Shown here: piece by piece, positions 1 to 62,976 of the stretch
Position numbering within the stretch: the first letter of the stretch is position 1
Layout: every line of letters begins with the position of its first letter
DNA from: an uncultured Verrucomicrobiota bacterium
GTDB taxonomy: Bacteria; Verrucomicrobiota; Verrucomicrobiia; Verrucomicrobiales; V1-33
Direction of reading: 5' to 3'
Length of the DNA: 64,000 nt
Assembly: GCA_942492905.1 (NCBI GenBank)
Contig: OW818657.1
Location: 5,918,188 to 5,982,187, forward strand
Notes under the pieces: generated by a model
The model's database searches: none
Seen by the model: only the letters and a program-made list of their open reading frames with translations
Told to the model about the DNA's origin: nothing
Made by a program: the position numbers and the translations under genes

Positions 1-510
1 TTAGACATTTTTCCCTGAGGGAGCTCCTGATTCCGGATCATCGGATTTCCCGGCACTATCCGCCAGTCTTTCGCGCAGAGACAGAAGCACCCGTTGAAAT
101 GCTTCCAGATCATCCAAATCAAGGCCGTCCGTGACTTGATTCACCCACGGTGCCTGCAGTTTCATCGCGGCTTCATAGGCTTGTTTGCCCTTTGCGCTCA
201 AAACGACCAGTTGGGCGCGGCGGTGGCGCGGATTGGCTTTGAAAGTGAGGAATCCCAGTCTGTGCAGATCATTCACGATGCGCTGCACGTTCTGGCGGTT
301 GGTCCCAAGATTCCGGGCAATCCCAGCCACGCTTTGCGGGGGACCGGCACGGACAATCGCGCCAAGGATTTGCCAACGGGTTCCGGTCAGTCCGAGATGA
401 GCCGCCAAACGGTCACCGGCATTCAGAATGAGACTGCCAACCCGGAATAGTTCCATCGTCAAAGTGGTCAATATCTCGCCGGCGGGGGTGCGTTGGGGTG
501 GTGGGGGCAT
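1..510 (-). CDS. MarR-family transcriptional regulator
   Basis: 169-aa ORF; its stop codon is nt 1-3, at the window edge. Winged-HTH MarR-like core LTGTRWQILGAIVRAGPPQSVAGIARNLGTNRQNVQRIVNDLHRLGFL. Divergently oriented to the esterase/xylanase operon. Confidence 0.85.
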   Translation of the reverse strand: MPPPPQRTPAGEILTTLTMELFRVGSLILNAGDRLAAHLGLTGTRWQILGAIVRAGPPQSVAGIARNLGTNRQNVQRIVNDLHRLGFLTFKANPRHRRAQLVVLSAKGKQAYEAAMKLQAPWVNQVTDGLDLDDLEAFQRVLLSLRERLADSAGKSDDPESGAPSGKNV

Positions 511-527
511 GGGTGGTTTGAACAGAT

Positions 528-7879
<7,352 letters not shown>

Positions 7880-7889
7880 CCTGCCCTGA

Positions 7890-9056
<1,167 letters not shown>

Positions 9057-9059
9057 TCC

Positions 9060-10475
9060 GTGTCAACCACCGCGCCACAACCCGCCGATGATGGCGTGAA
9101 TCTCCGGAAGAGCGAATACATCGGTTATGCGTTGGGCGATACCGCGTCCAACTTCTTCTTCCAGACCTTCAACATCTTCCTCACCTACTACTATGTGGAT
9201 GTGTGGGGCATCGCACCGACGGTGCTGCTCTGGCTGTTCCCGTTGGTGAGGGCATTCGGGGCGTTTGACGATGTCATCATGGGGCTGATCGCCGACCGCA
9301 CGAAAACCCGGTGGGGAAAATTCAGGCCTTATCTTCTTTTCGGAGCGATTCCCTACGGCATCTGCGGTTATCTCATGTTCCTCGGTCCGGATTTCGGGGA
9401 GACCGGAAAGATCATTTATGCCGGAGTGAGCTACGCGCTTATGATGGTCAGCTACACGGTGATCAATGTGCCCTACTCAGCCATGCTGGGAGTGATCAGC
9501 CCATCGCCGCGCACCCGCACCCTGGCCTCCACCTACCGGTTCGTCGGCGCTTTCGGAGCGGCCTTTCTCATCTCGCTTTTTGTGCGGCCCCTCGTCGAAC
9601 ATCTTGGCGCCGGGAATGAAACCCGCGGCTTCCAGCTGACCATGGCGATCTTCGCCGTGATCTCCGTGGTGCTCATTCTGATCACCTTTGCCACGACCAA
9701 GGAGCGGGTGAAACCCCCGTCGCAGCAGAAAACCAATGTCAAAGAAGAGCTGGGGGAACTTTTCAAAAACTGGCCATGGGTTGTGCTGCTTATCACGTCC
9801 ATTTTCTCCAATGCCTTTTCCGCGCTGCGTTCAGGCAGTTCGATCTTTTATTTCAAATACGTGCAGGGTTATGATTCCACGCCCGTCTGGTGGCGGCTGG
9901 ATCACACCACGCTGTTCCTCACCAGCGGAGCCCTGGGGCTGGTGCTGGGCACCCTGTGCCTCGCCCCCATCGCCCGGAAGGTGGATAAGAAATACTATGC
10001 CGCCGGCCTCAGCTTGATCACCGGCTTGTGTTTCCTGGCATTTTATTTCATCCCGAAAGGAGCCTTCTGGCCCATGGTCGCGCTGAATATGCTGGCGCAG
10101 TTTTGCGCGGGGCCCACCTCTGCCCTGACATGGGCCCTCTACGGCGATGTGGCGGACTATGGCGAGGTCAAATACGGCCGCCGCTCCACCGGCCTCATTT
10201 ATTCGGCGTCGTTGTTTTCCATCAAAGCCGGGATTCTGATCGGCGGTTTTCTGGTGCCGCTTTTCCTCGCCGGATATGGTTATGTCAAAGACGCCCCTGC
10301 ACAGACGACCCATGCCCTGCTGGGCATCGCTCTGGCCTTCTCCATCGGTCCTGCGATCTTTGCCCTGCTGAAGGCTGCGGCGCTGATAGTCTATCCACTC
10401 GATCAAAAACGCGTGGACGAAATAGAGGAATCCCTCGCCTCCCGGCGCAGGGAAACGGAAGCTCCCTCCGCATGA
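9060..10475 (+). CDS. Glycoside-pentoside-hexuronide (GPH):cation symporter, xyloside/oligosaccharide transporter type
   Basis: Polytopic membrane protein with the GPH signature GLIADRTKTRWGKFRPYLLFGAIPYG. GTG start 3 nt after the preceding stop. Its TGA overlaps the GH43 ATG (ATGA at 10472-10475). Confidence 0.85.
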   Translation: MSTTAPQPADDGVNLRKSEYIGYALGDTASNFFFQTFNIFLTYYYVDVWGIAPTVLLWLFPLVRAFGAFDDVIMGLIADRTKTRWGKFRPYLLFGAIPYGICGYLMFLGPDFGETGKIIYAGVSYALMMVSYTVINVPYSAMLGVISPSPRTRTLASTYRFVGAFGAAFLISLFVRPLVEHLGAGNETRGFQLTMAIFAVISVVLILITFATTKERVKPPSQQKTNVKEELGELFKNWPWVVLLITSIFSNAFSALRSGSSIFYFKYVQGYDSTPVWWRLDHTTLFLTSGALGLVLGTLCLAPIARKVDKKYYAAGLSLITGLCFLAFYFIPKGAFWPMVALNMLAQFCAGPTSALTWALYGDVADYGEVKYGRRSTGLIYSASLFSIKAGILIGGFLVPLFLAGYGYVKDAPAQTTHALLGIALAFSIGPAIFALLKAAALIVYPLDQKRVDEIEESLASRRRETEAPSA

Positions 10476-12130
10476 CCATCCGCAATCCTATCCTGCCTGG
10501 TTTCAATCCCGACCCGTCCATCGTGCGGGTGGGGGAGGATTATTACATCGCCACGTCCACCTTCGAGTGGTTTCCCGGGGTGCAGATTCATCACTCACGC
10601 GACCTTGTGAACTGGCGGCTCCTCACGCGTCCCCTGCGGCGGGCCAGCCAGCTCAACATGCTGGGCACGCCTGATTCCTGCGGCGTCTGGGCTCCCTGCC
10701 TGACCTATGCCGATGGCCTGTTCTGGCTGATCTACACGGACGTGAAGCGCTTTGGCCGCATGAGTGTGGCCGGGGCCAGCGGGTCGTCCATGCGGGATTT
10801 TCACAACTACCTGGTCACCTGCCCGGAGATCGATGGCGAATGGTCTGAACCTGTGCCGCTCAACAGCAGCGGATTTGATCCATCTCTTTTCCATGACGAC
10901 GATGGCAGAAAATACCTGCTCAACATGCTCTGGGACCACCGTGCGGGCCACAACCGCTTTGCCGGCATTTTGCTGCAGGAATATTCCACTGAGGAGCAGC
11001 GATTGATCGGTGAGCGGCGGATCATTTTCCATGGCACGGAACTGGGATTCACCGAAGCTCCGCATCTCTACAAACGCGATGGCTGGTATTACCTCCTTAC
11101 GGCGGAGGGCGGCACCTTTTGGGGCCACGCCGTCACCATGGCCCGGTCCCGCGACATTGCCGGTCCCTATGAGCTGCATCCTGACAATCCCCTGCTGACC
11201 TCCCGGGACCGCCCGGATGCCGTGCTCCACCGCGCCGGTCACGCCGATCTGGTCGAGACTCCCGCTGGCGAAACCTACCTGGTTTGCCTCGCCGGGCGCC
11301 CGCTGCCTAACCGGGGCCGGTGTACGCTGGGGCGCGAAACGATCATTCAAAAGATGCGTTGGCATGCGGATGGCTGGCTGCGCACCCTGGATGGCGGCAG
11401 CCTGCCCACATTGGAAACGCCGGCGCCGGATCTGCCAGCGCATCCGTTTCCAACAGCACCTGCGCGGGATGACTTCGACTCGCCGCACCTCGGTGTCGAT
11501 TATCAATGGCTGCGCACGCCGCATCCGGAGGAAATCTTCAGTCTCACTGCCCGGCCCGGCTTTCTTCGACTAACAGGACGCGAGACGCTCGGCAGTCTCT
11601 TCACGCAGGCCCTGGTGGCCCGCCGCCAGCAAGCGCATTGTTTTACGGCGGCGACGGTCATCGGGTTCGAGCCTGACCATTTCCAACAACTCGCGGGCTT
11701 GGTCTGTTACTACAGCAGCACGAAGTTCCATTACCTGCATCTTACCCACAGCGACGCCGCTGGAAAACATCTCCGCGTCATGTCCTGCGTGCCGGATTCC
11801 CCGCAGGCCGACTCCTTCACAGCGCCCATTCCAATTCTGCCAGGACGGCCCGTGCACCTTCGCGTGGAAGTGGACTTTGAGCGGCTCCGGTTCGGCTATC
11901 GGGTGGAAGGTGTGCACGACACCTGGCAATGGCTTCCCGAATCCTTCGATGCCAGCATTTTATCGGACGAATGCAATGCTCCCGGTCACGCCAGCTTCAC
12001 CGGCAACTTCCTCGGCATGGCCTGTCAGGATCTTTCCGGCACGCGAAAGGCTGCCGACTTTGATTCCTTTTACTACGCAGAACGGCCATTTGCCTCCGGG
12101 CTCAACTCCAACCCCCTGACTTTCCTATGA
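10472..12130 (+). CDS. GH43 beta-xylosidase / alpha-L-arabinofuranosidase
   Basis: MTIRNPILPGFNPDPSIVRVGEDYYIATSTFEWFPGVQIHHSRDLVNW is a classic GH43 N-terminus. There is a C-terminal beta-sandwich region. The ORF-track start at 10028 is an upstream in-frame extension overlapping the transporter; ATG 10472 is in frame and coupled. Confidence 0.9.
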   Translation: MTIRNPILPGFNPDPSIVRVGEDYYIATSTFEWFPGVQIHHSRDLVNWRLLTRPLRRASQLNMLGTPDSCGVWAPCLTYADGLFWLIYTDVKRFGRMSVAGASGSSMRDFHNYLVTCPEIDGEWSEPVPLNSSGFDPSLFHDDDGRKYLLNMLWDHRAGHNRFAGILLQEYSTEEQRLIGERRIIFHGTELGFTEAPHLYKRDGWYYLLTAEGGTFWGHAVTMARSRDIAGPYELHPDNPLLTSRDRPDAVLHRAGHADLVETPAGETYLVCLAGRPLPNRGRCTLGRETIIQKMRWHADGWLRTLDGGSLPTLETPAPDLPAHPFPTAPARDDFDSPHLGVDYQWLRTPHPEEIFSLTARPGFLRLTGRETLGSLFTQALVARRQQAHCFTAATVIGFEPDHFQQLAGLVCYYSSTKFHYLHLTHSDAAGKHLRVMSCVPDSPQADSFTAPIPILPGRPVHLRVEVDFERLRFGYRVEGVHDTWQWLPESFDASILSDECNAPGHASFTGNFLGMACQDLSGTRKAADFDSFYYAERPFASGLNSNPLTFL

Positions 12131-13413
12131 AACCCGTCACAAAACTAGTCCGCAGCCTCCTCCTTCCCGCCGTCCTGGTCAGCTCCCTGTTCGCGGCGGA
12201 CGGCCCGGTTACTCTGAAGGATGCCTACGCGCCTCACTTCAAAATAGGAACCTGCATCAACCGCAGTGTCGCCACGGGCCAGGGTGGGCGGCGGAGTGAG
12301 GACCAGGTCAAAGCGGACATCGCCCTGGTGAAGGCGCAGTTCAATCAGGTGGTGGCGGAGAATGAAATGAAGTGGATGAGCCTGCATCCCCGGGCGGGGA
12401 AGGATGGTTATGACTGGACCGCCGCGGACGCCTTTGTGGAGTTCGGAACCAAAAACAATATGGAAATGGCCGGGCACACGCTCGTGTGGCACAGTCAAAC
12501 TCCCAATTGGGTTTTTGAGGGCACCTTTCTGCCGCCGGGTGCCGCGGAAAAACAGAATCCTCCCGCTGCCGAAAGCACCCCGCCGGCGCCACCAGCGCCA
12601 ACGCCGCCGAACGGCGGACCTCCCAGCACCCGGCGCGGACCCGGCGGATTTCCCGGCTTCCGCCCCTTCGATCTCAATGGCCCCCGTGCCACCCGCGAGG
12701 AATTGCTCGAACGCATGCGTGAACACATTCATACCGTGGTGGGCCGGTACAAAGGTAAGATCAAGGTGTGGGACGTGGTGAACGAAGCCATTTCCGATGG
12801 CGGGGATGAGGTCCTGCGGAAGTCCCCGTGGTCCGTCATCATCGGGCCGGACTTTATTGAAAAGGCCTTTGAGTTTGCCCATGAGGCCGATCCAGACGCC
12901 ATCCTCCGCTACAACGACTATGGACTGGAGAACCCGAAGAAGCGCCAAAAACTCATCACCCTCATCAAAGGGCTGCAGGAAAAGAAGATTCCCGTCATGG
13001 CCATCGGCACCCAGGCGCATCTCAATGTCTCCGTGACTTTCGACATCATGGACCAGTCACTGGCGGAAATGAAGACGCTCGGTCTTCCTATCGACGTCAC
13101 GGAACTGGACGTGAACGGAGCCATGGGCGGTCAGGGAGGGTTCGGCGCGGACGTCGCGGGCAATGCCGCAGCCACGGACGGAGGACTGGTCGCCGAGGCT
13201 GACAAAAAACTGACCGAAGCCTACACCGCCGTATTCAAAGCCTTCCTCAAACACAAGGATGCCGTAAAAGTAGTAACCTTCTGGGGCCCCAACGATGCCA
13301 ACTCATGGAGGGGCCGCGCCCGCCCGCTGCTCTTTAATGGAGACAGCAAGCCAAAGCCCGCCTTCGATGCCGTCATTAAACTCGCCACGGAAAATGCGCC
13401 CAAAGCCCCGTAA
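12127..13413 (+). CDS. GH10 endo-1,4-beta-xylanase (secreted) with an internal Pro-rich insertion
   Basis: Signal peptide. GHTLVWHSQTPNWVF, WDVVNEA (acid/base Glu), IDVTELDV (nucleophile Glu). ATGA overlap with the GH43 stop. Confidence 0.9.
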   Translation: MKPVTKLVRSLLLPAVLVSSLFAADGPVTLKDAYAPHFKIGTCINRSVATGQGGRRSEDQVKADIALVKAQFNQVVAENEMKWMSLHPRAGKDGYDWTAADAFVEFGTKNNMEMAGHTLVWHSQTPNWVFEGTFLPPGAAEKQNPPAAESTPPAPPAPTPPNGGPPSTRRGPGGFPGFRPFDLNGPRATREELLERMREHIHTVVGRYKGKIKVWDVVNEAISDGGDEVLRKSPWSVIIGPDFIEKAFEFAHEADPDAILRYNDYGLENPKKRQKLITLIKGLQEKKIPVMAIGTQAHLNVSVTFDIMDQSLAEMKTLGLPIDVTELDVNGAMGGQGGFGADVAGNAAATDGGLVAEADKKLTEAYTAVFKAFLKHKDAVKVVTFWGPNDANSWRGRARPLLFNGDSKPKPAFDAVIKLATENAPKAP

Positions 13414-14310
<897 letters not shown>

Positions 14311-14421
14311 TGCGGTAAATGCCGGAAAACTTCTCCCTCCACCTCGCGCCCGACGTGGCGCGGGGCCGGCGCCGGCGCCTGATCCCAACTCCCCCATCAT
14401 CTCCCTTCCCTATCATTCAAG

Positions 14422-16992
14422 ATGAAATACCTTCTGCCGGTTGTCTTAACTCTACTGCTGCCTTTGCTCTGTCACGCGCAGGATCCGTCCCGGTTTGAAA
14501 AAGAAGTGTTGGCTGCGGGATTGAGTGACCCGCTGCAACTGGACATCGCCCAGGACGGACGGGTGTTTTTCATTGAGCGGAAGGGAGCGGTGAAAGTGTG
14601 GGAGCCGGCATCGCGGAGCACGGTGACGATTGGCGATTTCCCCTGCGCCACGGGTGGGGATGCGGGGGGGCTGGGGCTGACCCTGGCGCGGGATTTCCAA
14701 AAGAGCGGTCATCTTTATACGATCCGCGTGCCCGCGCAGGGCGAGGCGAAGCTGTTGTTGGCGCGCTTCAAACTCGAAGGCGGGAAGCTCGTGGACGAGC
14801 ATGCGGTTCTGACCATTCCGCTGGGCAAAGGGCGGGACCAGTCCCACTGCGGTGCGGGGCTTGCCTGGGATGCGCAGGGCAACCTCATCATCAGCGTCGG
14901 AGACAATATGGCGCCGCAGGATGTGCCGGCGGTTCATGCCGAAGACGCCGGGCGCGATGCGCGAGGCACGGCGGGAAATTCGCAGGAGTTGCGCGGGAAG
15001 ATTCTGCGTATCACCCCGCAGGCGGACGGCTCCTACGGCATCCCTTCTGGCAATCTTTTCCCCAATCCCCAACAAGGACGACCGGAGGTGTTCGCGTTTG
15101 GGGTGCGGAATCCATTTCGCGTCACTTGCGATGCGAAGACGGGTTTTATCATCTGGGGAGACGTGGGGGGCAACGTGCGCACGGAACTCGATCTGGGCCC
15201 GGAGGGTTTTGATGAGTTGAACGTGACGCGGGAACCGGGGTTTTTCGGCTGGCCGTTCTGTGCCGGGCCCAACCTGCCGTGGCGTCCGTTTGATCCGAAG
15301 ACGCAGAAGCCGGCCGGAGCGTTTTTTGATCCGGCAAAACTCATCAATGACAGCCGCTTCAACACGGGGCTGAAGGAGTTGCCGCCCGCCCGGCCTGCCG
15401 CTTTTTATTACGACAATCTGGCCTCGGAAGAGTGGCCGTTTGCCGGCAGCGGCGGGCGGAGCATCACCGGCGGCGTGGTTTACCGGAAGCCGGAGGCAGC
15501 GGGGGAATCGCGCCTGCCCGACGAATGGGAGGGGGCCTATCTTTTCTGCGAATGGATGCGCAACTGGGTGGCGGCGGCACGCTTCGACGGGGACGGCAAG
15601 CTGGTGAAGGCGGAGCGGGTGCTGGAAGGGTTGACGTTCAAGCGGCCGGCCGATTTAAAGATCGGGCCGGACGGTGCCCTCTACCTCGCGGAGTGCGGCG
15701 ACCAGTGGACCGGAAATACCGATAGCCGGATCACACGCGTGACTTACTGGCGCGGGAATCGGCCACCCGAAGCCGTGGTAGGTGCGGACCGCGTCGCCGG
15801 CAAGCTGCCGCTGGAGGTCGCGTTCGATGCCGCAGCCTCGCGTGACGCGGACGGCGGGGAGTTGAAATTCACTTGGGATTTTGGAGATGGAAAGCAGGCC
15901 GGAGGCGTCAAAACCAGCCACGTTTTCACCACAGCGGGCGTGTGGCCCGTAACGCTCACGGTCACGGATGCACAGGAGACCGCCGCCACGGCCGTGGTGA
16001 ATATCGCAGCCGGAAATGAAGCGCCCCGGGTGAAGTTTGCCACTCCGCTGGACGGCGGATTTTTGGATGGGAAGGAAATCGCCTGGACCGTCAACGCCAC
16101 GGATGCGGAGGATGGCGCGGTGCCGGCGGAGCGACTGCTGATTCAGCTGGAGAAACGCGACCGGGCAGCGACGGAAGAGACGCATCCCGGGCTGGCGCTG
16201 ATGAAAGGCACCACTTGTTTTGCCTGTCACAATGCCACGGATCAAAGCGCGGGCCCGCCCTATGCCGCCATCGCTGCGAAGTATGCCGCAGATTCCGGGG
16301 CGCGGGAAACATTGCAGGCGAAAATCATCCAGGGAGGGGCCGGGGTGTGGGGCCCATTGCCCATGCCGCCGCATCCGCAACACACGCCGGCCGAGGCGGC
16401 ACTGATGGTGGATTGGGTGTTGTCCTTGGCTCAACGCCGGATCACCGCGCTGCCCGCCGCCGCTGAGGGCAAAGCTGCCGTGCCGGCGACCGTGGGCGGG
16501 TTCGGCCGCGCGGACAATACCGTGATGTTCCTGACCGCCGCCACGACGGACCAGGGGGCCGGCGTGCTGCCACCGCTGCGGGGTTCCACCGAGGTGATGC
16601 TGCGCAGCCGGCGTCAGCGCGCCGCGTGCTTCGACCACGGTGAAAAAGCCGCCGCCCAGGACAATCTCGATCAGGGCGGACTGGTGGCGCGCATTCATCC
16701 CGGCGGCTGGATCGGGTTTGACCGCATCCGGCTGCAGGACTTCGGGCTCCTGAAACTGACTGCCTGGCCGCAAGGCGCGGCCCCACTCACCGTTAGCATT
16801 CTCACCGGTGGCCAGGAGCTGGCGCGGCAAACCCTGCCGCCCGGCCCGGCTGCCGGCCGGCCGCCTCCGGAATTCGTGTTCCCCATGCCGTCCGCCACCG
16901 AAGCCGGCCCGCCTCAGCAGGTGCGGATCAAATTGGAAGGCTCTGCCGGGAGTGTGCTGGAGATAATGTGGGTGGAATTCCAGCGGCGTTAG
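14422..16992 (+). CDS. PQQ-type soluble sugar dehydrogenase (GSDH beta-propeller) + PKD domain + cytochrome c + C-terminal CBM6-like domain
   Basis: FEKEVLAAGLSDPLQLDIAQDGRVFFIERKGAVKVW and VFAFGVRNPFRVTCDAKTGFIIWGDVG are GSDH-like. WDFGDG marks a PKD domain. Heme motif CFACH at nt 16216-16230, with GVWGPLPMPPH. The C-terminal segment GGWIGFDRIRL...VLEIMWVEF is CBM-like. Confidence 0.85.
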   Translation: MKYLLPVVLTLLLPLLCHAQDPSRFEKEVLAAGLSDPLQLDIAQDGRVFFIERKGAVKVWEPASRSTVTIGDFPCATGGDAGGLGLTLARDFQKSGHLYTIRVPAQGEAKLLLARFKLEGGKLVDEHAVLTIPLGKGRDQSHCGAGLAWDAQGNLIISVGDNMAPQDVPAVHAEDAGRDARGTAGNSQELRGKILRITPQADGSYGIPSGNLFPNPQQGRPEVFAFGVRNPFRVTCDAKTGFIIWGDVGGNVRTELDLGPEGFDELNVTREPGFFGWPFCAGPNLPWRPFDPKTQKPAGAFFDPAKLINDSRFNTGLKELPPARPAAFYYDNLASEEWPFAGSGGRSITGGVVYRKPEAAGESRLPDEWEGAYLFCEWMRNWVAAARFDGDGKLVKAERVLEGLTFKRPADLKIGPDGALYLAECGDQWTGNTDSRITRVTYWRGNRPPEAVVGADRVAGKLPLEVAFDAAASRDADGGELKFTWDFGDGKQAGGVKTSHVFTTAGVWPVTLTVTDAQETAATAVVNIAAGNEAPRVKFATPLDGGFLDGKEIAWTVNATDAEDGAVPAERLLIQLEKRDRAATEETHPGLALMKGTTCFACHNATDQSAGPPYAAIAAKYAADSGARETLQAKIIQGGAGVWGPLPMPPHPQHTPAEAALMVDWVLSLAQRRITALPAAAEGKAAVPATVGGFGRADNTVMFLTAATTDQGAGVLPPLRGSTEVMLRSRRQRAACFDHGEKAAAQDNLDQGGLVARIHPGGWIGFDRIRLQDFGLLKLTAWPQGAAPLTVSILTGGQELARQTLPPGPAAGRPPPEFVFPMPSATEAGPPQQVRIKLEGSAGSVLEIMWVEFQRR

Positions 16993-17158: not shown

Positions 17159-17761
17159 CTAATAAACCTCAGGCAATAGCCCCGCCTTTTTCTGCTCATA
17201 CCGACAATTCTTAGCTCCCTCAGGTTTGGTATTTTGTCTTGTTCGGGTGTTAAGGAGGTCAGGCAGCGTTTCAGGAAACCCCATCCTGATCCGGTATGCT
17301 TCAGGCTCATGTCGCTTAAGATTTCTGTAAATTGAAATTTCCTGCCGCCGCCAGCGGGTCGCGTCCGAATCATCAAGGCTTGCGACACGGATTAATCTGC
17401 GGCCCTCTGCGCAAAGTGGGTTGATGGTGCCATTCTTAGCTACGGACACGAGGGTGCCGTAGCCCAGCTTGCAGGGATCTGGCATCCGGCCCGCTGATTT
17501 CCAACTATTGCAAGTCGTGCAGGCAAGAACGAGGTTAGAATATGTGGTATCCAGGTCCCTGCGTTGCGAGCGTGGGACCAAATGTTCGACGACCCAAATG
17601 GCTCTCCGACGCTCCCACGTTTCCCGACGCAGACAATAGACGCAGCGGAAGTCGAACTCATCCCGAAGCCAATCCTTGTAGTCGGCATAGTCGGAGTAGC
17701 CGGACGGACCGTGTTTACGACAGTGGGGCTGGGTGGGATACAGAAACGGCTCAGGACTCAT
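17159..17761 (-). CDS. HNH endonuclease (200 aa)
   Basis: HNH/Zn-finger core CVYCLRRETWERRRAIWVVEHLVPRSQRRDLDTTYSNLVLACTTCNSWK (nt ~17498-17644). The start overlaps the methyltransferase stop by 4 nt (ATGA on the minus strand at 17758-17761). Confidence 0.85.
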   Translation of the reverse strand: MSPEPFLYPTQPHCRKHGPSGYSDYADYKDWLRDEFDFRCVYCLRRETWERRRAIWVVEHLVPRSQRRDLDTTYSNLVLACTTCNSWKSAGRMPDPCKLGYGTLVSVAKNGTINPLCAEGRRLIRVASLDDSDATRWRRQEISIYRNLKRHEPEAYRIRMGFPETLPDLLNTRTRQNTKPEGAKNCRYEQKKAGLLPEVY

Positions 17762-20505
17762 TCACTCCATTTGCCCTCCCGTTTGAGTCTTTCGATCAGA
17801 GCCTCCTGTTCCTCAAATGGGAAAGGGGCCACCAGTCGCCGCCTCAACAGGGCAAAGTGTTGGAGCTGCTCCAATTCTCCGACCTCGGTCTTCTTGAGCT
17901 TGCCTTTATACTCCAAATCAATGAGGTCCAAGCGCCGGGCATTGGTTGCTTCCCAATCCGCCGTGATGGTCAGCAGTTCCTGCAGGGTCTGTGCTCCATC
18001 GAATCCGGCGGGATAATATTCAGTCTGATGAAATGGCACACCCTCCCGTTCGTAGCCTGTAAAGAAGTCTAGTAGTTTCCGTTCCAGTTCCTGCGGCAGT
18101 TTGTAGAGTGCCAGAACGGCGGCATCCAGCCGCCAGTGAAGGTGCTTTAGGTAGTCATCATGGTCTGGAGGATTTTCGTTCAGTTCCAAGCCGGGCAATT
18201 CTGCCGAGTCCAATCTCCTTGCTGCCTGGACAGAGCGTTTTGATGTTCTGCCGGGTTTCAATGATCCGCTGGCTGCGTCGCGATACTGCTTTGCCAACTT
18301 CTCGATATGATCCTGTTGGGCCTCGGTAATTGTTGGTAACGGGAGCTGTTCGACCGTGCCGGAAAGGATATCCCGCTTGCTGGAGTAGGATTTCGTAAAC
18401 GCGTTTGCCAAAGGTGAATTGAGAATAGCCCATAGACAAATTGGTATTATTTGAGTCTCCTCGGTTTCCTGTGATTTAACAGGGCGAATTACAAGAAACC
18501 GACCTCGGGTGGGGTGACCGATTGCATCAAAGTATGCGAGATTTCTCCACGGGCCTCGGCTGATTGGGGAGTGGTTCATAACCACCTTTGGTATGCCAGT
18601 TTCACATCCTGCAACGGCTCGATCTATCGCTGCATCGTCAAACAGAAGCCATTGAAGATGGGGTAATTGATGGGAAAATCCAGTCTGCTTTAGATCATAG
18701 AAACCAAGGCGATACCCCGATTGTTTCGTGCTTACACGCTTGGGTTTTCCCTTGGGAAACGTGGGATCCGACTCTGCCTTATAAATGAATCCTTGTCCGG
18801 CGGCAGCAGCCTTTCCGAGCTTGTTGAAGCGGGAACAAAAATCCCAGACATCCACCAAATCCGGCACAAGCATTGAGACAGCATCGTCGGCCAGCATTCC
18901 CGCAGCCTCCCGCTCCTGCGTCACGGTTGGCTTACCCTTGGTCTCAAACTCCGGCAGTCCGCCATCCCACACATGGTTGATTCGCACAGGCACCGTGGAT
19001 CTGTTCTTTCCGGACAATTTGCGACCGATGATTATAGCGGTTTCAACATCAGCTTTTTCGAAGACTTTGTCAGGAAGGCGCAGGATTTCCTGCCACTCGA
19101 AGTGTCCCAGCAAGTCTTTCCGCAAAGCGGTAGCCTTTTTGGAATCAAGAATCGTCTGTGGCATGATGTAGGCCACCAAGGTGCCGGGCTTGGCATTCAG
19201 ACTAATCCTGCGGAGTAACTCGGCGGCCTGACCAACATGGAAAAGTTCGTCACCTGCGCTGGGCCGGGTTTCGAACGGGGGATTTGAAATGATGATATCA
19301 GCGTTTGCGAGGCGGGACTCCATCCGTCCATTTCGGAACATATCCCCATCATCCAACTCCCAGCCGTTTGGATTCGGGATATCCGCCAGCGTCAGCGAAA
19401 GGCGAGCAACTTCGCGGGCGAAGTCATCGGTCTCCGCGCCGACCAGCCGGGATTGAAGCCACGCATGTCTTTCCACATCATTCATGGCGATGCAGGGCTT
19501 CATGCCGGAGAATAGCCTGAGCATCGCCACCAAGAACGGAGCATGACCGCAACCTGGCTCGTAAACTTTGCGGCGTGACTCCGGCTGTGCTTCGACCCAA
19601 GGCGTGAGCCGTTGCACGATGTAATTCACAAGCCACGCTGGAGTGCTGTGAGTTCCGAGCGCTTTGCGGGTCTCCTTGGTGATAAGCACGTTTTCATAAA
19701 CGCGGGCCAGCGTTTCCGTGCTTACCAGCCGCAGTGAGCTGTGGGAGTTGAGAATATCCGCAGCGCCCGTCAGGGCTTTGCGGCGACGTTGCGAAAGCGC
19801 GTGCTGCGGTCGCGATCCATAGTGCCGCGCCACGCGTGAAAAGACATTGTCCAAATCCTCCAAATCAAGTGTTTTGAAGTTTTGTACTTGTTTGTCGTGG
19901 AGCAGGCGGGCCGCGAGGAGCCAGAAGTTCGCTTGGACCAGCCATTGAGCATCCATTTCCTCCAATTCCTTGAAGGCAGCCATGTTCAGCTTTTCGCGGG
20001 TGGCAAGAATCATGCTCTCTACCAAGCAGCAGAGCTGCGCGCTGGATTCAGATTCCACCATCTCCAGCAGGCCGATATCCACGAAACTCAGCTGCCGACT
20101 AATATCGAGGCGTGCGGTTGTCTTGGCGCGATAAATAGACCGTGGATCAAGCTTCGAACGGTAGGCTTGGAAAAAAGCATCCAAGGAGCCATTATCAGGA
20201 TCCCATAGGCGGCAAGGTTGAGCGGGGGTCAATTGCCAGACGCTCCAGTGTTGGCCTGAGCCAAGAAAGGCAAGAGGTGCTCCAGTATCGCGCCCCACAT
20301 TCAAAAAGGCACTTGGGTCATTCTGATCGGGCGCGGCCACCACACACGCGGTCCGCGTGTCAAATGGGCGGTGTGAGAAAGCCAGTAGCGGCACCGTGCT
20401 TTTTCCAAAAAGAAAATCCGGGGCAAGATTTTCGCGGGCAAATCCACACCGCTCGAGATGCGAGCGAAGCTGACGGTCATCGAACGCTGGACGGGAAAAT
20501 GACAA
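17758..20505 (-). CDS. Gamma-class N6-adenine DNA methyltransferase with target-recognition domain (Eco57I/MmeI-like size and layout), 915 aa
   Basis: SAM motif I VYEPGCGHAPFLV. Catalytic motif IV IIISNPPFE (NPPF at nt 19273-19284). TRD-like WAILNSPLANAF. The uncharacterised N-terminal ~250 aa and C-terminal ~150 aa remain unassigned. The start is a TTG at 20505 and is uncertain. Confidence 0.85.
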   Translation of the reverse strand: MSFSRPAFDDRQLRSHLERCGFARENLAPDFLFGKSTVPLLAFSHRPFDTRTACVVAAPDQNDPSAFLNVGRDTGAPLAFLGSGQHWSVWQLTPAQPCRLWDPDNGSLDAFFQAYRSKLDPRSIYRAKTTARLDISRQLSFVDIGLLEMVESESSAQLCCLVESMILATREKLNMAAFKELEEMDAQWLVQANFWLLAARLLHDKQVQNFKTLDLEDLDNVFSRVARHYGSRPQHALSQRRRKALTGAADILNSHSSLRLVSTETLARVYENVLITKETRKALGTHSTPAWLVNYIVQRLTPWVEAQPESRRKVYEPGCGHAPFLVAMLRLFSGMKPCIAMNDVERHAWLQSRLVGAETDDFAREVARLSLTLADIPNPNGWELDDGDMFRNGRMESRLANADIIISNPPFETRPSAGDELFHVGQAAELLRRISLNAKPGTLVAYIMPQTILDSKKATALRKDLLGHFEWQEILRLPDKVFEKADVETAIIIGRKLSGKNRSTVPVRINHVWDGGLPEFETKGKPTVTQEREAAGMLADDAVSMLVPDLVDVWDFCSRFNKLGKAAAAGQGFIYKAESDPTFPKGKPKRVSTKQSGYRLGFYDLKQTGFSHQLPHLQWLLFDDAAIDRAVAGCETGIPKVVMNHSPISRGPWRNLAYFDAIGHPTRGRFLVIRPVKSQETEETQIIPICLWAILNSPLANAFTKSYSSKRDILSGTVEQLPLPTITEAQQDHIEKLAKQYRDAASGSLKPGRTSKRSVQAARRLDSAELPGLELNENPPDHDDYLKHLHWRLDAAVLALYKLPQELERKLLDFFTGYEREGVPFHQTEYYPAGFDGAQTLQELLTITADWEATNARRLDLIDLEYKGKLKKTEVGELEQLQHFALLRRRLVAPFPFEEQEALIERLKREGKWSE

Positions 20506-61465: not shown

Positions 61466-62191
61466 CTACTCCACCTCAAACACCATCAACTCCAGCGTGT
61501 AGAAAGCACGCGGACTGGCGGCATCCACATACACCGTCCTGACGTCCCCATCGCCGGCCAGCTGGGTCTGGTCCAGCGAACTGTCCTTTTCGAGCGCGAA
61601 AGCGGCCGGCTGGAAGGGCCCGGCAAGATCAGTGCTGCGCCGGATCCGGTAGGATGCCAGGTTCTTCGTGGGGAAAGTGAGGGCCAGACGTTTGGCTCCT
61701 TCGGTGGTGCGCACCGGGGAGAGTCCGCTGATCCCAAACTCAAATTCGGGGAGTTCCACCTCCAGCACCCCGCCGGAAAACCGGCTGGGATAGGGAATCA
61801 AATCCGCAGTGGCAGGGCCGTTGGTGACGGCCCCGTCGATGGCGTAGGTGGAGCCATGGCACGAACAGAAAATCTCCCGGCTCACCGTATCATAACGCTC
61901 CACGCGGCACCCCTCGTGCCGGCAGGTGGGATCAAGGACAAACAGAGCATCCCCCGGCCCGCGGTTGATCAGCAGCACGGTGGCCTCCCCATCATGAGTC
62001 AGCATGATCGATCCTCCCTCCTGTTGCAGCGCAGGATAGTCCGAAATCCTCAGCGGAAGCACCCGGTTCAGGTCAGGGGCAGGCGGGGTCTCTGCACGCC
62101 CCGGAGACGGCACCATCCCACTCAAGGCCCCGCAAGCCGATGCCAGACCTCCGAGGAATTTCCGACGCGAGCAGTTGAGGCAGGAATTCAT
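61466..62191 (-). CDS. Tat-exported Rieske [2Fe-2S] protein with a C-terminal beta-sandwich domain
   Basis: Twin-arginine signal MNSCLNCSRRKFLGGLASACGAL. Rieske boxes CRHEGC and CSCHGS. An alternative GTG start at 62275 overlaps the urtE stop (GTGA). Confidence 0.85.
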   Translation of the reverse strand: MNSCLNCSRRKFLGGLASACGALSGMVPSPGRAETPPAPDLNRVLPLRISDYPALQQEGGSIMLTHDGEATVLLINRGPGDALFVLDPTCRHEGCRVERYDTVSREIFCSCHGSTYAIDGAVTNGPATADLIPYPSRFSGGVLEVELPEFEFGISGLSPVRTTEGAKRLALTFPTKNLASYRIRRSTDLAGPFQPAAFALEKDSSLDQTQLAGDGDVRTVYVDAASPRAFYTLELMVFEVE

Positions 62192-62271
62192 CACAAATTT
62201 GAGGTCGACTCTATACCATTCCACCTCAGGATCTGCAATCTTTCCTTCCTGGCCGCTGGCGGTCCGCCACC

Positions 62272-62976
62272 TCACACTTGCAGGTGGGTCTTCACCACCT
62301 CATCCGTCAGGTCACGGATACTGCCGCTGGAAACGACCGCACCACGATCCATCGCAAAATAGCGATCCCCCACATCCCGGCAGAAATCGACATACTGTTC
62401 GACGAGGAGAATCGCCAGCTTTTCAGTAGTCCGGAGGAGCTTGATGGTCTCGCCGATTTCCTCGATAATGCTGGGCTGGATGCCCTCGGTGGGTTCATCC
62501 AGGATGAGGAGCTTCGGCCCGGTGAGCAGCGCCCTGCCGATGGCGAGTTGCTGCTGCTGGCCCCCGCTCAGCACCCCGCCCTTGCGGGCCAGCATGGATT
62601 TCAACACGGGGAAGAGGGTGTAGATCCGCTCCACCGCCGTCTTCACATCCTTGATCCGGCTACCATTGGCCACGTAGCCGATGCGCAGATTTTCCTCCAC
62701 CGTCATATGAGGAAAAATGTCACGTCCCTGGGGAACGTACCCAATCCCGAGCCGCGCCCGCGCATCCGGGGCGAGGCCGTTGAGGGCTTTTCCCTCAAGG
62801 GAAATGCTGCCGCTCCGGACCTCGCGCAACCCCGTGATCGACTTCAATGTCGTGGTTTTACCGACACCATTGCGGCCCATCAGGCAGGCCACTTCCCCTG
62901 GCCCGACCTCAAGAGAAACGCCCCGCAGAATGCGGGAACCGCCAATATCGGCGTGCAGGGATTCGACTTTAAGCAT
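62272..62976 (-). CDS. urtE: Urea ABC transporter ATP-binding protein UrtE
   Basis: Walker A GRNGVGKTT, LSGGQQQQLAIGRAL, and the UrtE-typical LDEPTEGIQPSII. Confidence 0.85.
   Translation of the reverse strand: MLKVESLHADIGGSRILRGVSLEVGPGEVACLMGRNGVGKTTTLKSITGLREVRSGSISLEGKALNGLAPDARARLGIGYVPQGRDIFPHMTVEENLRIGYVANGSRIKDVKTAVERIYTLFPVLKSMLARKGGVLSGGQQQQLAIGRALLTGPKLLILDEPTEGIQPSIIEEIGETIKLLRTTEKLAILLVEQYVDFCRDVGDRYFAMDRGAVVSSGSIRDLTDEVVKTHLQV

Follow-up and report, generated by a model that had tools for sequence, protein, structure and literature searches.

A putative exported sugar dehydrogenase with its own cytochrome c domain closes a conserved xylan gene cluster of Chthoniobacter-like Verrucomicrobiota

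The stretch of DNA analysed here (the window) comprises 64,000 nucleotides (nt) from an uncultured Verrucomicrobiota bacterium (GenBank assembly GCA_942492905.1, contig OW818657.1), and all positions are counted from its first letter. The gene in question (the target gene) lies last in a cluster of nine plus-strand xylan and esterase genes, and encodes an exported protein of 856 amino acids (aa) that joins a sugar dehydrogenase-type propeller, a PKD domain, a small immunoglobulin (Ig)-like domain, a cytochrome c domain and a C-terminal module resembling carbohydrate-binding module family 6 (CBM6-like). On balance, the target protein is probably an exported quinohemoprotein aldose or xylo-oligosaccharide dehydrogenase, in which pyrroloquinoline quinone (PQQ) would pass electrons to the heme c of the same chain, with a cytochrome and an oxidase encoded elsewhere as the next carriers. 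From the conserved gene order, we propose that the target gene is co-transcribed with, or at least co-inherited in, the xylan/esterase cluster of Chthoniobacter-like Verrucomicrobiota. The coordinates of all features are collected in the table.

The target open reading frame (ORF) was intact, with an ATG start and a stop codon at 16990-16992. It is not a chance ORF, because the protein aligned end to end with hundreds of homologs (E = 0), including full-length ones that share 60-100% identity with it. More than 1,600 of 8,000 scored candidates matched at E <= 1e-10, which makes the family a large one, and its members are commonly annotated as 'PQQ-dependent sugar dehydrogenase' or 'cytochrome c'. 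Three Pfam regions were recognised in the target protein: GSDH (PF07995, residues 35-281, E 1.9e-32, 113 bits with a cut-off of 25), PKD_4/PKD (residues 446-527, 1.8e-20) and Cytochrom_C (PF00034, residues 590-669, 2.2e-6). The PKD domain carries its WDFGDG motif at residues 485-490 and also matches collagenase PKD structures. The Ig-like domain lies between the PKD and cytochrome domains, and the Big_7 matches to it were weak and were obtained in homologs. The protein was modelled with AlphaFold2 from an input of 39 homologs (mean predicted local distance difference test score, pLDDT, 86.8; predicted template modelling score 0.71). The signal peptide had low pLDDT in this model and is kept in close orthologs. 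The domains that an initial annotation, made from the letters alone, had read at 14422-16992 (GSDH propeller, PKD with WDFGDG, CFACH heme site and CBM6-like module) were all recovered by Pfam, motifs and profiles.

By sequence profile and predicted fold, the propeller is assigned to the bacterial soluble glucose dehydrogenase (sGDH)/aldose sugar dehydrogenase (Asd) family (PF07995) and not to auxiliary activity family 12 (AA12). A propeller profile searched against the PDB matched 2ISM (3.5e-31), 2G8S (1.1e-23), sGDH 1C9U (7.6e-21) and also 3A9G. Foldseek searches of the PDB, with template modelling (TM) scores normalised by Foldseek target length, gave 0.87 for 2ISM and 0.84 for 3A9G, both with a probability of 1.00, and about 0.8 for 2G8S, 7CDY and 3DAS; the range for the Asd enzymes overall was 0.79-0.87. 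HHIP proteins ranked just under the enzymes in both the sequence and the fold searches, and the NCBIfam model TIGR03606 matched below its cut-off (38 vs 434 bits).

The initial annotation had presented the protein as a possible bacterial analogue of the fungal AA12 enzymes, a likeness that was found to extend to architecture only. No AA12 chain was retrieved at E <= 10 in the propeller profile search of the PDB, and the AA12 structures (CcPDH 6JWF/6JT5 and TrAA12 6H7T) stood at Foldseek ranks 42-50, at 11-12% identity and TM 0.53-0.58; the Asd/sGDH enzymes and even the HHIP proteins ranked higher. Nor were the accessory domains of CcPDH (AA8 cytochrome b and CBM1) those of the target protein, which has a class I cytochrome c and a CBM6-like module.

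Residue conservation was assessed in an alignment of 111 full-length homologs, with identity to the target down to 33%, and the roles of sGDH and CcPDH residues were taken from the literature (PMC6881789). The catalytic-His candidate H142 (codon 14845-14847) aligns to sGDH His144, and R229-N230 align to sGDH Arg228-Asn229, the Arg-Asn pair at the PQQ quinone. Eight positions were invariant in 111/111 homologs (H142, R229, N230, G249, E265, W277, W378 and R380); R346 and E424 were kept in 110/111, and R408, the equivalent of sGDH Arg406, was R, K or H in 110/111. The putative metal loop D247-V248-G249-G250 aligns to E-H-G-P of 2ISM, with Gly247-Pro248, which provide two main-chain carbonyls in the active site, as the sGDH counterpart; position 250 was G in 68 homologs, P in 31 and another residue in 12. 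An alternative hidden Markov model alignment placed the metal loop at L258-G259-P260. A conserved redox-catalytic pocket is predicted from these residues, and PQQ is most likely the cofactor that it would hold.

The heme attachment site is C599-F-A-C602-H603 (16216-16230), and the distal ligand Met648 is found within a GVWGPLPMPP motif. C599, C602 and H603 were kept in 110/111 homologs, and M648 in 111/111. Since the domain also matched Pseudomonas cytochrome c551 (1COR: E 2.9e-17 over 79 residues, about 45% identity), it is classed by sequence as a class I cytochrome c with a predicted covalent heme site.

In the C-terminal 185 aa of the target protein itself, no domain was recognised by Pfam. 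A profile of homologous C-termini matched CBM6 structures (1W9S 1.7e-20, 1GMM 1.1e-14, and also 1UXX and 1NAE), and PF03422 was matched by 16 of 22 homologous C-termini; the label 'CBM6-like' is correct only by transitivity, because it is the C-termini of the homologs, and not that of the target alone, that match CBM6. The cleft-A residues of BhCBM6, which we take to be W42, W99 and N132 (two aromatics plus Asn), correspond to R, A and E in the target protein and its clade, and W99 and N132 were both retained in only 2 of the 22 homologs. The module is thus CBM6-like in fold, with the canonical sugar-binding residues lost.

For the comparison of gene neighbourhoods, contigs were scanned as follows: 72 loci were returned, 12 of which were true orthologs, and the remainder, which matched the PKD domain only, were ignored. 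The synteny set comprised 13 distinct loci with orthologs at >= 77% identity, all from Chthoniobacter, Chthoniobacteraceae or Chthoniobacterales metagenome-assembled genomes. A glycoside hydrolase family 10 (GH10), GH43 or SASA gene lay directly upstream of the ortholog, on the same strand, in 12 of these 13 loci (the exception being L014). At least three gene orders were found: MFS-GH43-GH10-SASA-target in the window and in L019 (MFS, major facilitator superfamily), GH10-SASA-MFS-GH43-target in L002, and DUF7133-cytochrome, one unassigned stretch and GH10-target in L009, L010, L018 and L020. A neutral accident is therefore not expected to account for the linkage. The gaps before the target gene appeared to be shorter than about 60 nt in several relative loci, where the start-codon calls are approximate; intergenic distances in distant orthologs are likewise approximate because automatic start-codon predictions are unreliable.

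Within the window, the next genes downstream of the target gene are convergent, so the target gene closes the plus-strand cluster. The initial annotation had made it the last gene of a xylan operon, lying 111 nt downstream of the acetylesterase gene and in the same direction: with the last base of the SASA gene at 14310, the spacing of 111 nt is exact, and membership is strengthened by the conserved synteny. Consensus scans, which may not suit Verrucomicrobiota, found no sigma-70-like promoter or terminator-like site in this gap. A conserved RNA hairpin or promoter in the gap was also considered and rejected, as the GC-rich inverted repeat was not kept in L019 or L015.

Sec signal peptides were found on the target protein, the GH10, the SASA-type acetylesterase and all the esterases, and none was found on the GH43. 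From this distribution, xylo-oligosaccharides would be made outside the cytoplasm, imported by the MFS symporter and cut to xylose inside. Because the partners are exported, and the GH43 is unexported and encoded beside the MFS symporter, the reducing sugars open to the target protein are oligosaccharides and chain ends.

The second heme protein of the locus, a 1471-aa exported protein, joins an esterase to a DUF7133 domain (the PVC-type heme-binding CxxCH module, TIGR02604; PVC, Planctomycetes-Verrucomicrobia-Chlamydiae) with cytochrome c; its CBM4_9 match was weak and sub-threshold. The four PF00756 esterases of the cluster, one of which is the part fused directly to this DUF7133-cytochrome module, match the feruloyl-esterase half of NF041944. 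In L009, L010 and L018, the esterase and DUF7133-cytochrome parts matched as separate stretches. The initial annotation had counted two independent propeller-cytochrome proteins in the locus, and the two are indeed unlike: a paralogous origin was ruled out, with a BLASTP E of 0.22 between them. A DUF7133-cytochrome protein was encoded within 10 kb of the target ortholog in six of the 13 loci; L003 and L016 had the target ortholog and no DUF7133 protein within that distance.

The cluster is headed by a divergent MarR-family regulator gene. The palindrome lying between this gene and esterase 1 has no other match in the window at <= 3 mismatches (0.01 chance matches expected) and, from its sequence and position, is likely to be an operator. 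A second copy was looked for upstream of the target gene and none was present. MarR-type regulators often sense phenolic acids, and phenolic-acid sensing would fit the four feruloyl-esterase-like genes of the cluster.

Distant homologs carry an N-terminal ThuA domain or additional cytochrome domains, and the clearest evidence about an electron sink was found in two homologs. These two, P0103 (L007:4114-8544) and P0110 (L008:5285-9505), are collinear, share 58% identity and come from different samples. Both have the layout GSDH, cytochrome c551 and CBM6-like (with a Pfam CBM_6 match in P0103 only), and after about 180 aa of no recognised function come a transmembrane helix, then a CuA domain and, last, another cytochrome c domain. 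The CuA domain is of the cytochrome oxidase subunit II type and has its H...CxExCGxxHxxM motif intact; no COX1 gene was found within 8 kb of either gene. As Rosetta-stone fusions to oxidase subunit II, these proteins suggest that the electron sink of the family is the aerobic respiratory chain and not the support of lytic polysaccharide monooxygenases (LPMOs), and they point to a respiratory sink for the electrons of the target protein. Cytochrome c oxidases are encoded in most Chthoniobacteraceae genomes (PMC11596606), and no usable literature was found on PQQ biosynthesis in Chthoniobacter. The initial annotation had cited the electron supply by fungal AA12 enzymes to oxidative polysaccharide-degrading enzymes; nothing in the data supports such a role for the target protein: the window ORFs scanned and the annotated neighbours in L001-L006 yielded neither LPMO_10 nor any other AA-family domain, and the oxidase fusions point to respiration.

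The fusion of a sugar dehydrogenase to an oxidase subunit is unusual in itself. Many of the more distant homologs (among P0106-P0119, e.g. P0108) have an N-terminal ThuA domain (PF06283) ahead of the GSDH-PKD-cytochrome c-CBM6 core, and in L007 a separate ThuA gene lies behind the fused gene, which suggests a recurrent functional tie between ThuA-like proteins and the dehydrogenase family of the target protein.

The mechanism that we favour would run as follows. In a compartment that is most likely the periplasm, the propeller, presumably with PQQ and a divalent metal, would convert xylan-derived sugars to the lactone by oxidation of the C1 hydroxyl at their reducing end, with His142 as the base. 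The substrates would be mainly xylo-oligosaccharides freed by the exported GH10, esterases and acetylesterase. Two electrons would then move singly to the c551-type heme c domain of the same chain and be handed on to another cytochrome, soluble or membrane-bound, and finally to a terminal oxidase, both encoded elsewhere, so that a share of the hemicellulose flux would give respiratory energy ahead of uptake. The PKD, Ig-like and CBM6-like modules may act as spacers or as a targeting module. In L004 (67% homolog, 6335-9023), genes for an AraC regulator and an ILVD_EDD-family protein are found on the same strand, two genes upstream; the ILVD_EDD family includes sugar-acid dehydratases, and this neighbour could be a sign of aldonic acids as the product in that lineage.

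Several observations weigh against a PQQ-dependent oxidation of xylan sugars by the target protein. Only the first two thirds of the GSDH profile (positions 2-223 of 332) are matched, and propeller blades 5-6 weakly resemble DUF7133/TIGR02604. Of the PQQ- and Ca-binding residues, whose conservation the initial annotation had proposed as a check, His142, the Arg-Asn pair and the metal-loop Gly are kept, and peripheral PQQ contacts are replaced (sGDH Gln231 by F/Y, Gln246 by V/I and Arg408 by variable residues). sGDH Lys377 has no alignable counterpart in the target protein. The near-invariant R346 and R380 might stand in for the replaced contacts. In addition, a Teredinibacter turnerae domain (pf08450-X173) that had been annotated as a PQQ glucose/sorbosone dehydrogenase bound no PQQ and was inactive (PMC10916295). 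The GSDH-PKD-cytochrome c-CBM family is annotated by homology alone. No pqq gene, PQQ importer, cytochrome or oxidase was found elsewhere in the window ORFs scanned, which agrees with the initial annotation's remark that the electron acceptor is not encoded there, and neither a lactonase gene nor one for aldonate utilisation is present in the cluster; the main route, by way of the MFS symporter and the cytoplasmic GH43, requires no oxidation step. Finally, the homologs at 67%, 60% and 50% identity have unrelated gene contexts. Because these three distant homologs with readable flanks sit elsewhere, the xylan linkage is real and conserved but clade-specific; a fourth distant homolog (L017, 60%), on a 2.6-kb contig with unreadable flanks, was left out of this comparison.

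These points would be accommodated if the target protein were redox-active or ligand-binding without being a PQQ dehydrogenase of xylan sugars, i.e. if it used another cofactor, none, or a different substrate, in the manner of the non-enzymatic HHIP proteins or of the PQQ-free T. turnerae domain, the xylan linkage then being a clade-specific accident of gene order. We regard this as unlikely, with a minor share of the probability: the replaced contacts, the partial GSDH match, the rank of the HHIP proteins just below the enzymes, the T. turnerae precedent (PMC10916295), the distant homologs outside xylan loci and the lack of a PQQ source in the window speak for it, and they are set against the invariant His, Arg-Asn pair and metal-loop Gly, the heme ligands kept in at least 110/111 homologs, the membership of the T. 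turnerae domain in a Pfam family (PF08450) other than that of the target protein, and a synteny that survives at least three gene orders. A conserved redox-catalytic function is therefore favoured by the conserved His, Arg-Asn pair, metal-loop Gly and heme ligands.

A different role, with an AA12-like redox partner as the model, would have the CBM bind xylan and the heme pass electrons to an LPMO-like enzyme or to O2 (giving H2O2), as in CcPDH. The shared logic of propeller, cytochrome and CBM, the export of the GH10, SASA and esterase proteins, the activation of LPMOs by CcPDH (PMC5960967), the ability of isolated bacterial c-type cytochrome domains to reduce LPMOs (PMC8981238) and the same analogy drawn for T. 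turnerae GSDH-cytochrome c-CBM proteins detected in the secretome (PMC12055684) make it conceivable. We give it little credence, as the target protein is not AA12 by sequence or fold rank, the scanned ORFs and annotated neighbours contain no LPMO_10 or AA domain, the cleft-A residues W42, W99 and N132 are R, A and E, and the oxidase subunit II fusions of the homologs indicate a respiratory sink. Similarly improbable, in our judgement, is a dedicated electron-transfer pair formed by the two heme proteins on lignin-carbohydrate or hydroxycinnamate-decorated xylan, with the target protein supplying sugar-derived reducing equivalents, for example for the processing of phenolics freed by the four feruloyl-esterase-like enzymes. 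Those four PF00756 esterases (one fused to the DUF7133-cytochrome module), the co-occurrence of a DUF7133-cytochrome protein with the target protein in six related loci and the MarR regulator, of a type often sensing phenolic acids, at the head of the cluster are consistent with such a pair; against it, the two proteins are unrelated in sequence, DUF7133 has no known activity, the target gene occurs without a DUF7133 gene within 10 kb (L003, L016) and no aromatic-metabolism enzyme is encoded in the cluster. In a broader and rather speculative view, to which only a small probability is attached, the target protein and the esterase-DUF7133-cytochrome c protein would give PVC bacteria a so far unrecognised oxidative branch of hemicellulose use that is independent of LPMOs; in it, the reducing ends of xylo-oligosaccharides would be oxidised extracytoplasmically and the electrons delivered to the aerobic chain or to a second heme enzyme acting on decorated xylan.

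The quinohemoprotein dehydrogenase that we favour was compared with known systems, starting with the sGDH/Asd enzymes: E. coli Asd/YliI (2G8S), T. thermophilus TTHA0570 (2ISM), P. aerophilum (3A9G/3A9H), S. coelicolor (3DAS) and A. calcoaceticus sGDH (1C9U/1CQ1). The target protein shares with them a six-bladed propeller, the catalytic His, the Arg-Asn pair, the D/E-x-G-(P/G) loop, one C-terminal Arg and predicted periplasmic export. The known enzymes each consist of one domain (about 350-450 aa) and pass electrons to a separate acceptor, whereas the target protein adds PKD, Ig-like, cytochrome c and CBM6-like domains, carries insertions (e.g. LGPEG past the metal loop), has divergent blades 5-6 and replaces Gln231, Gln246 and Arg408. 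Coprinopsis cinerea CcPDH consists of AA8 cytochrome b, the AA12 PQQ domain and CBM1, with T. reesei AA12 as a related case. The target protein resembles it in that a single secreted chain combines a six-bladed PQQ-type propeller with a built-in cytochrome and a module of carbohydrate-binding type, and in belonging to a plant cell-wall degrader, and differs in propeller family, c-type class I heme, domain order, CBM6-like module and the absence of an LPMO among the neighbours searched. Quinohemoprotein alcohol dehydrogenases (type II/III) likewise carry, behind a PQQ propeller, a class I cytochrome c at the C-terminus as first periplasmic acceptor; their propeller is eight-bladed and of an unrelated family, and they act on alcohols and are without PKD or CBM.

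Among bacteria, T. turnerae TERTU_3803/TERTU_2567 and the Cellvibrio japonicus Cbp2D/Cbp2E-type proteins are, like the target protein, secreted combinations of a GSDH-like propeller, c-type cytochrome and CBM, and these redox proteins have already been likened to CcPDH (PMC12055684, PMC10916295, PMC8981238). They differ in their modules (PF08450-X173, X183, X132 and CBM2/5/10), their phylum and their place in cellulose/LPMO systems. In the passages available from Voutsinos et al., 2026 (bioRxiv 10.64898/2026.07.10.737718), exported six-bladed PQQ-type propellers are described in many phyla including Verrucomicrobia, with propellers in clusters of carbohydrate-active enzymes in 400 genomes (one of them a cluster resembling a xylan polysaccharide utilisation locus), cytochrome c551 or c4 neighbours and occasional heme-domain fusions, and a PQQ-to-cytochrome-to-terminal-oxidase model is proposed. 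As described in these passages, that set is defined by nine CcPDH-type PQQ residues and lanthanide/calcium motifs (NERD...D etc.), and the target protein is nearer the sGDH/Asd branch; the same passages do not describe the PKD-cytochrome-CBM6 architecture or the Chthoniobacter xylan-operon synteny. Cytochrome-CBM proteins of PVC bacteria have been called enigmatic (PMC5615132).

The idea itself is not new, since the likeness of bacterial GSDH-cytochrome c-CBM proteins to CcPDH is already in print (PMC12055684), and nothing here overturns current views. The present analysis contributes the placement in Asd/sGDH instead of AA12, a map of which residues are retained or replaced, the finding that the CBM6 is degenerate, the synteny with xylan genes conserved in Chthoniobacter, and the fusions to oxidase subunit II. 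If the favoured mechanism is true, soil Verrucomicrobiota would tap hemicellulose oligosaccharides for respiratory energy ahead of their import and would release aldonic acids, and the modelling of xylan turnover and carbon-use efficiency would change for an abundant soil group. For direct-electron-transfer biosensors, fusions of sGDH-type enzymes and cytochromes have been made by engineering up to now (PMC12011955), and a naturally occurring sGDH-type enzyme that carries cytochrome c on the same chain would be of interest to their builders. Because the family is large and annotated by homology only, one characterised member would anchor many annotations, and the xylan-linked clade is a sensible choice because its conserved synteny lets candidate substrates be guessed.

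Table. Features of the target gene and of the surrounding cluster, with positions in the window
Feature	Positions	Strand	Basis or remark
Whole target gene, 856-aa exported GSDH-PKD-Ig-cytochrome c-CBM6-like protein	14422..16992	+	ORF list, Pfam, homologs
Sec signal peptide MKYLLPVVLTLLLPLLCHA|QD, residues 1-20	14422..14481	+	Read directly from sequence
Six-bladed beta-propeller, sGDH/Asd (PF07995), residues 21-445	14482..15756	+	Pfam, PDB profile search, Foldseek, conservation
PKD domain, residues 446-530	15757..16011	+	PF18911 1.8e-20, PF00801 1.3e-12
Small Ig-like beta domain, residues 531-585	16012..16176	+	Model strands 536-541, 552-561, 573-579
Class I cytochrome c domain (c551/c552 type), residues 586-670	16177..16431	+	PF00034, PDB 1COR
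Beta-strand extension, then divergent CBM6-like beta-sandwich, residues 671-856	16432..16989	+	Family profile against PDB
MarR-family regulator gene, divergent, head of cluster	4..510	-	PF12802 1e-14
Perfect 18-bp palindrome TTGACATCATGATGTCAA	529..546	.	Within the 37-nt space between the MarR gene and esterase 1
Exported esterase 1, feruloyl-esterase-like	548..2128	+	PF00756; true start probably a Met some 14 codons inside the ORF
First heme-linked propeller protein, 1471 aa, exported: esterase, DUF7133, cytochrome c	2188..6603	+	
Exported esterases 6641-7879 and 7893-9056 (the latter with CBM48)	6641..9056	+	
MFS_2 sugar symporter (glycoside-pentoside-hexuronide type)	9060..10475	+	PF13347 1.4e-85
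GH43 beta-xylosidase, no signal peptide, probably cytoplasmic	10472..12130	+	Start overlaps the MFS stop codon by 4 nt
Exported GH10 endoxylanase	12127..13413	+	PF00331 4.1e-93, signal peptide
Exported SASA-type carbohydrate acetylesterase	13450..14310	+	PF03629 1.8e-33, signal peptide
SASA-target gap, 111 nt	14311..14421	+	Retained in the two closest relatives, L019 and L015
HNH endonuclease and N6 DNA methylase genes, convergent, downstream cluster limit	17159..20505	-	

The stretch that bounds the cluster downstream (17159-20505) has a G+C content of 0.536 against about 0.60, contains a weak MmeI-like match and is absent at the matching position in L002 and L003. From its composition and gene content, it is probably a mobile restriction-modification island inserted just past the xylan cluster. 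A Rieske [2Fe-2S] protein is encoded at 61466-62272 (minus strand) beside genes for ABC-transporter (ATP-binding cassette) ATPases, with no link to the xylan cluster, and is the only other redox-centre protein found in the window besides the two heme proteins. Further large proteins are encoded between 51361 and 59914: a DUF642-containing protein (839 aa, minus strand), an HpiC1-like protein of 495 aa, and one of 1523 aa that combines Lamin-tail domains (LTD) with CotH. Giant LTD/CotH proteins also flank the target homolog in L006.

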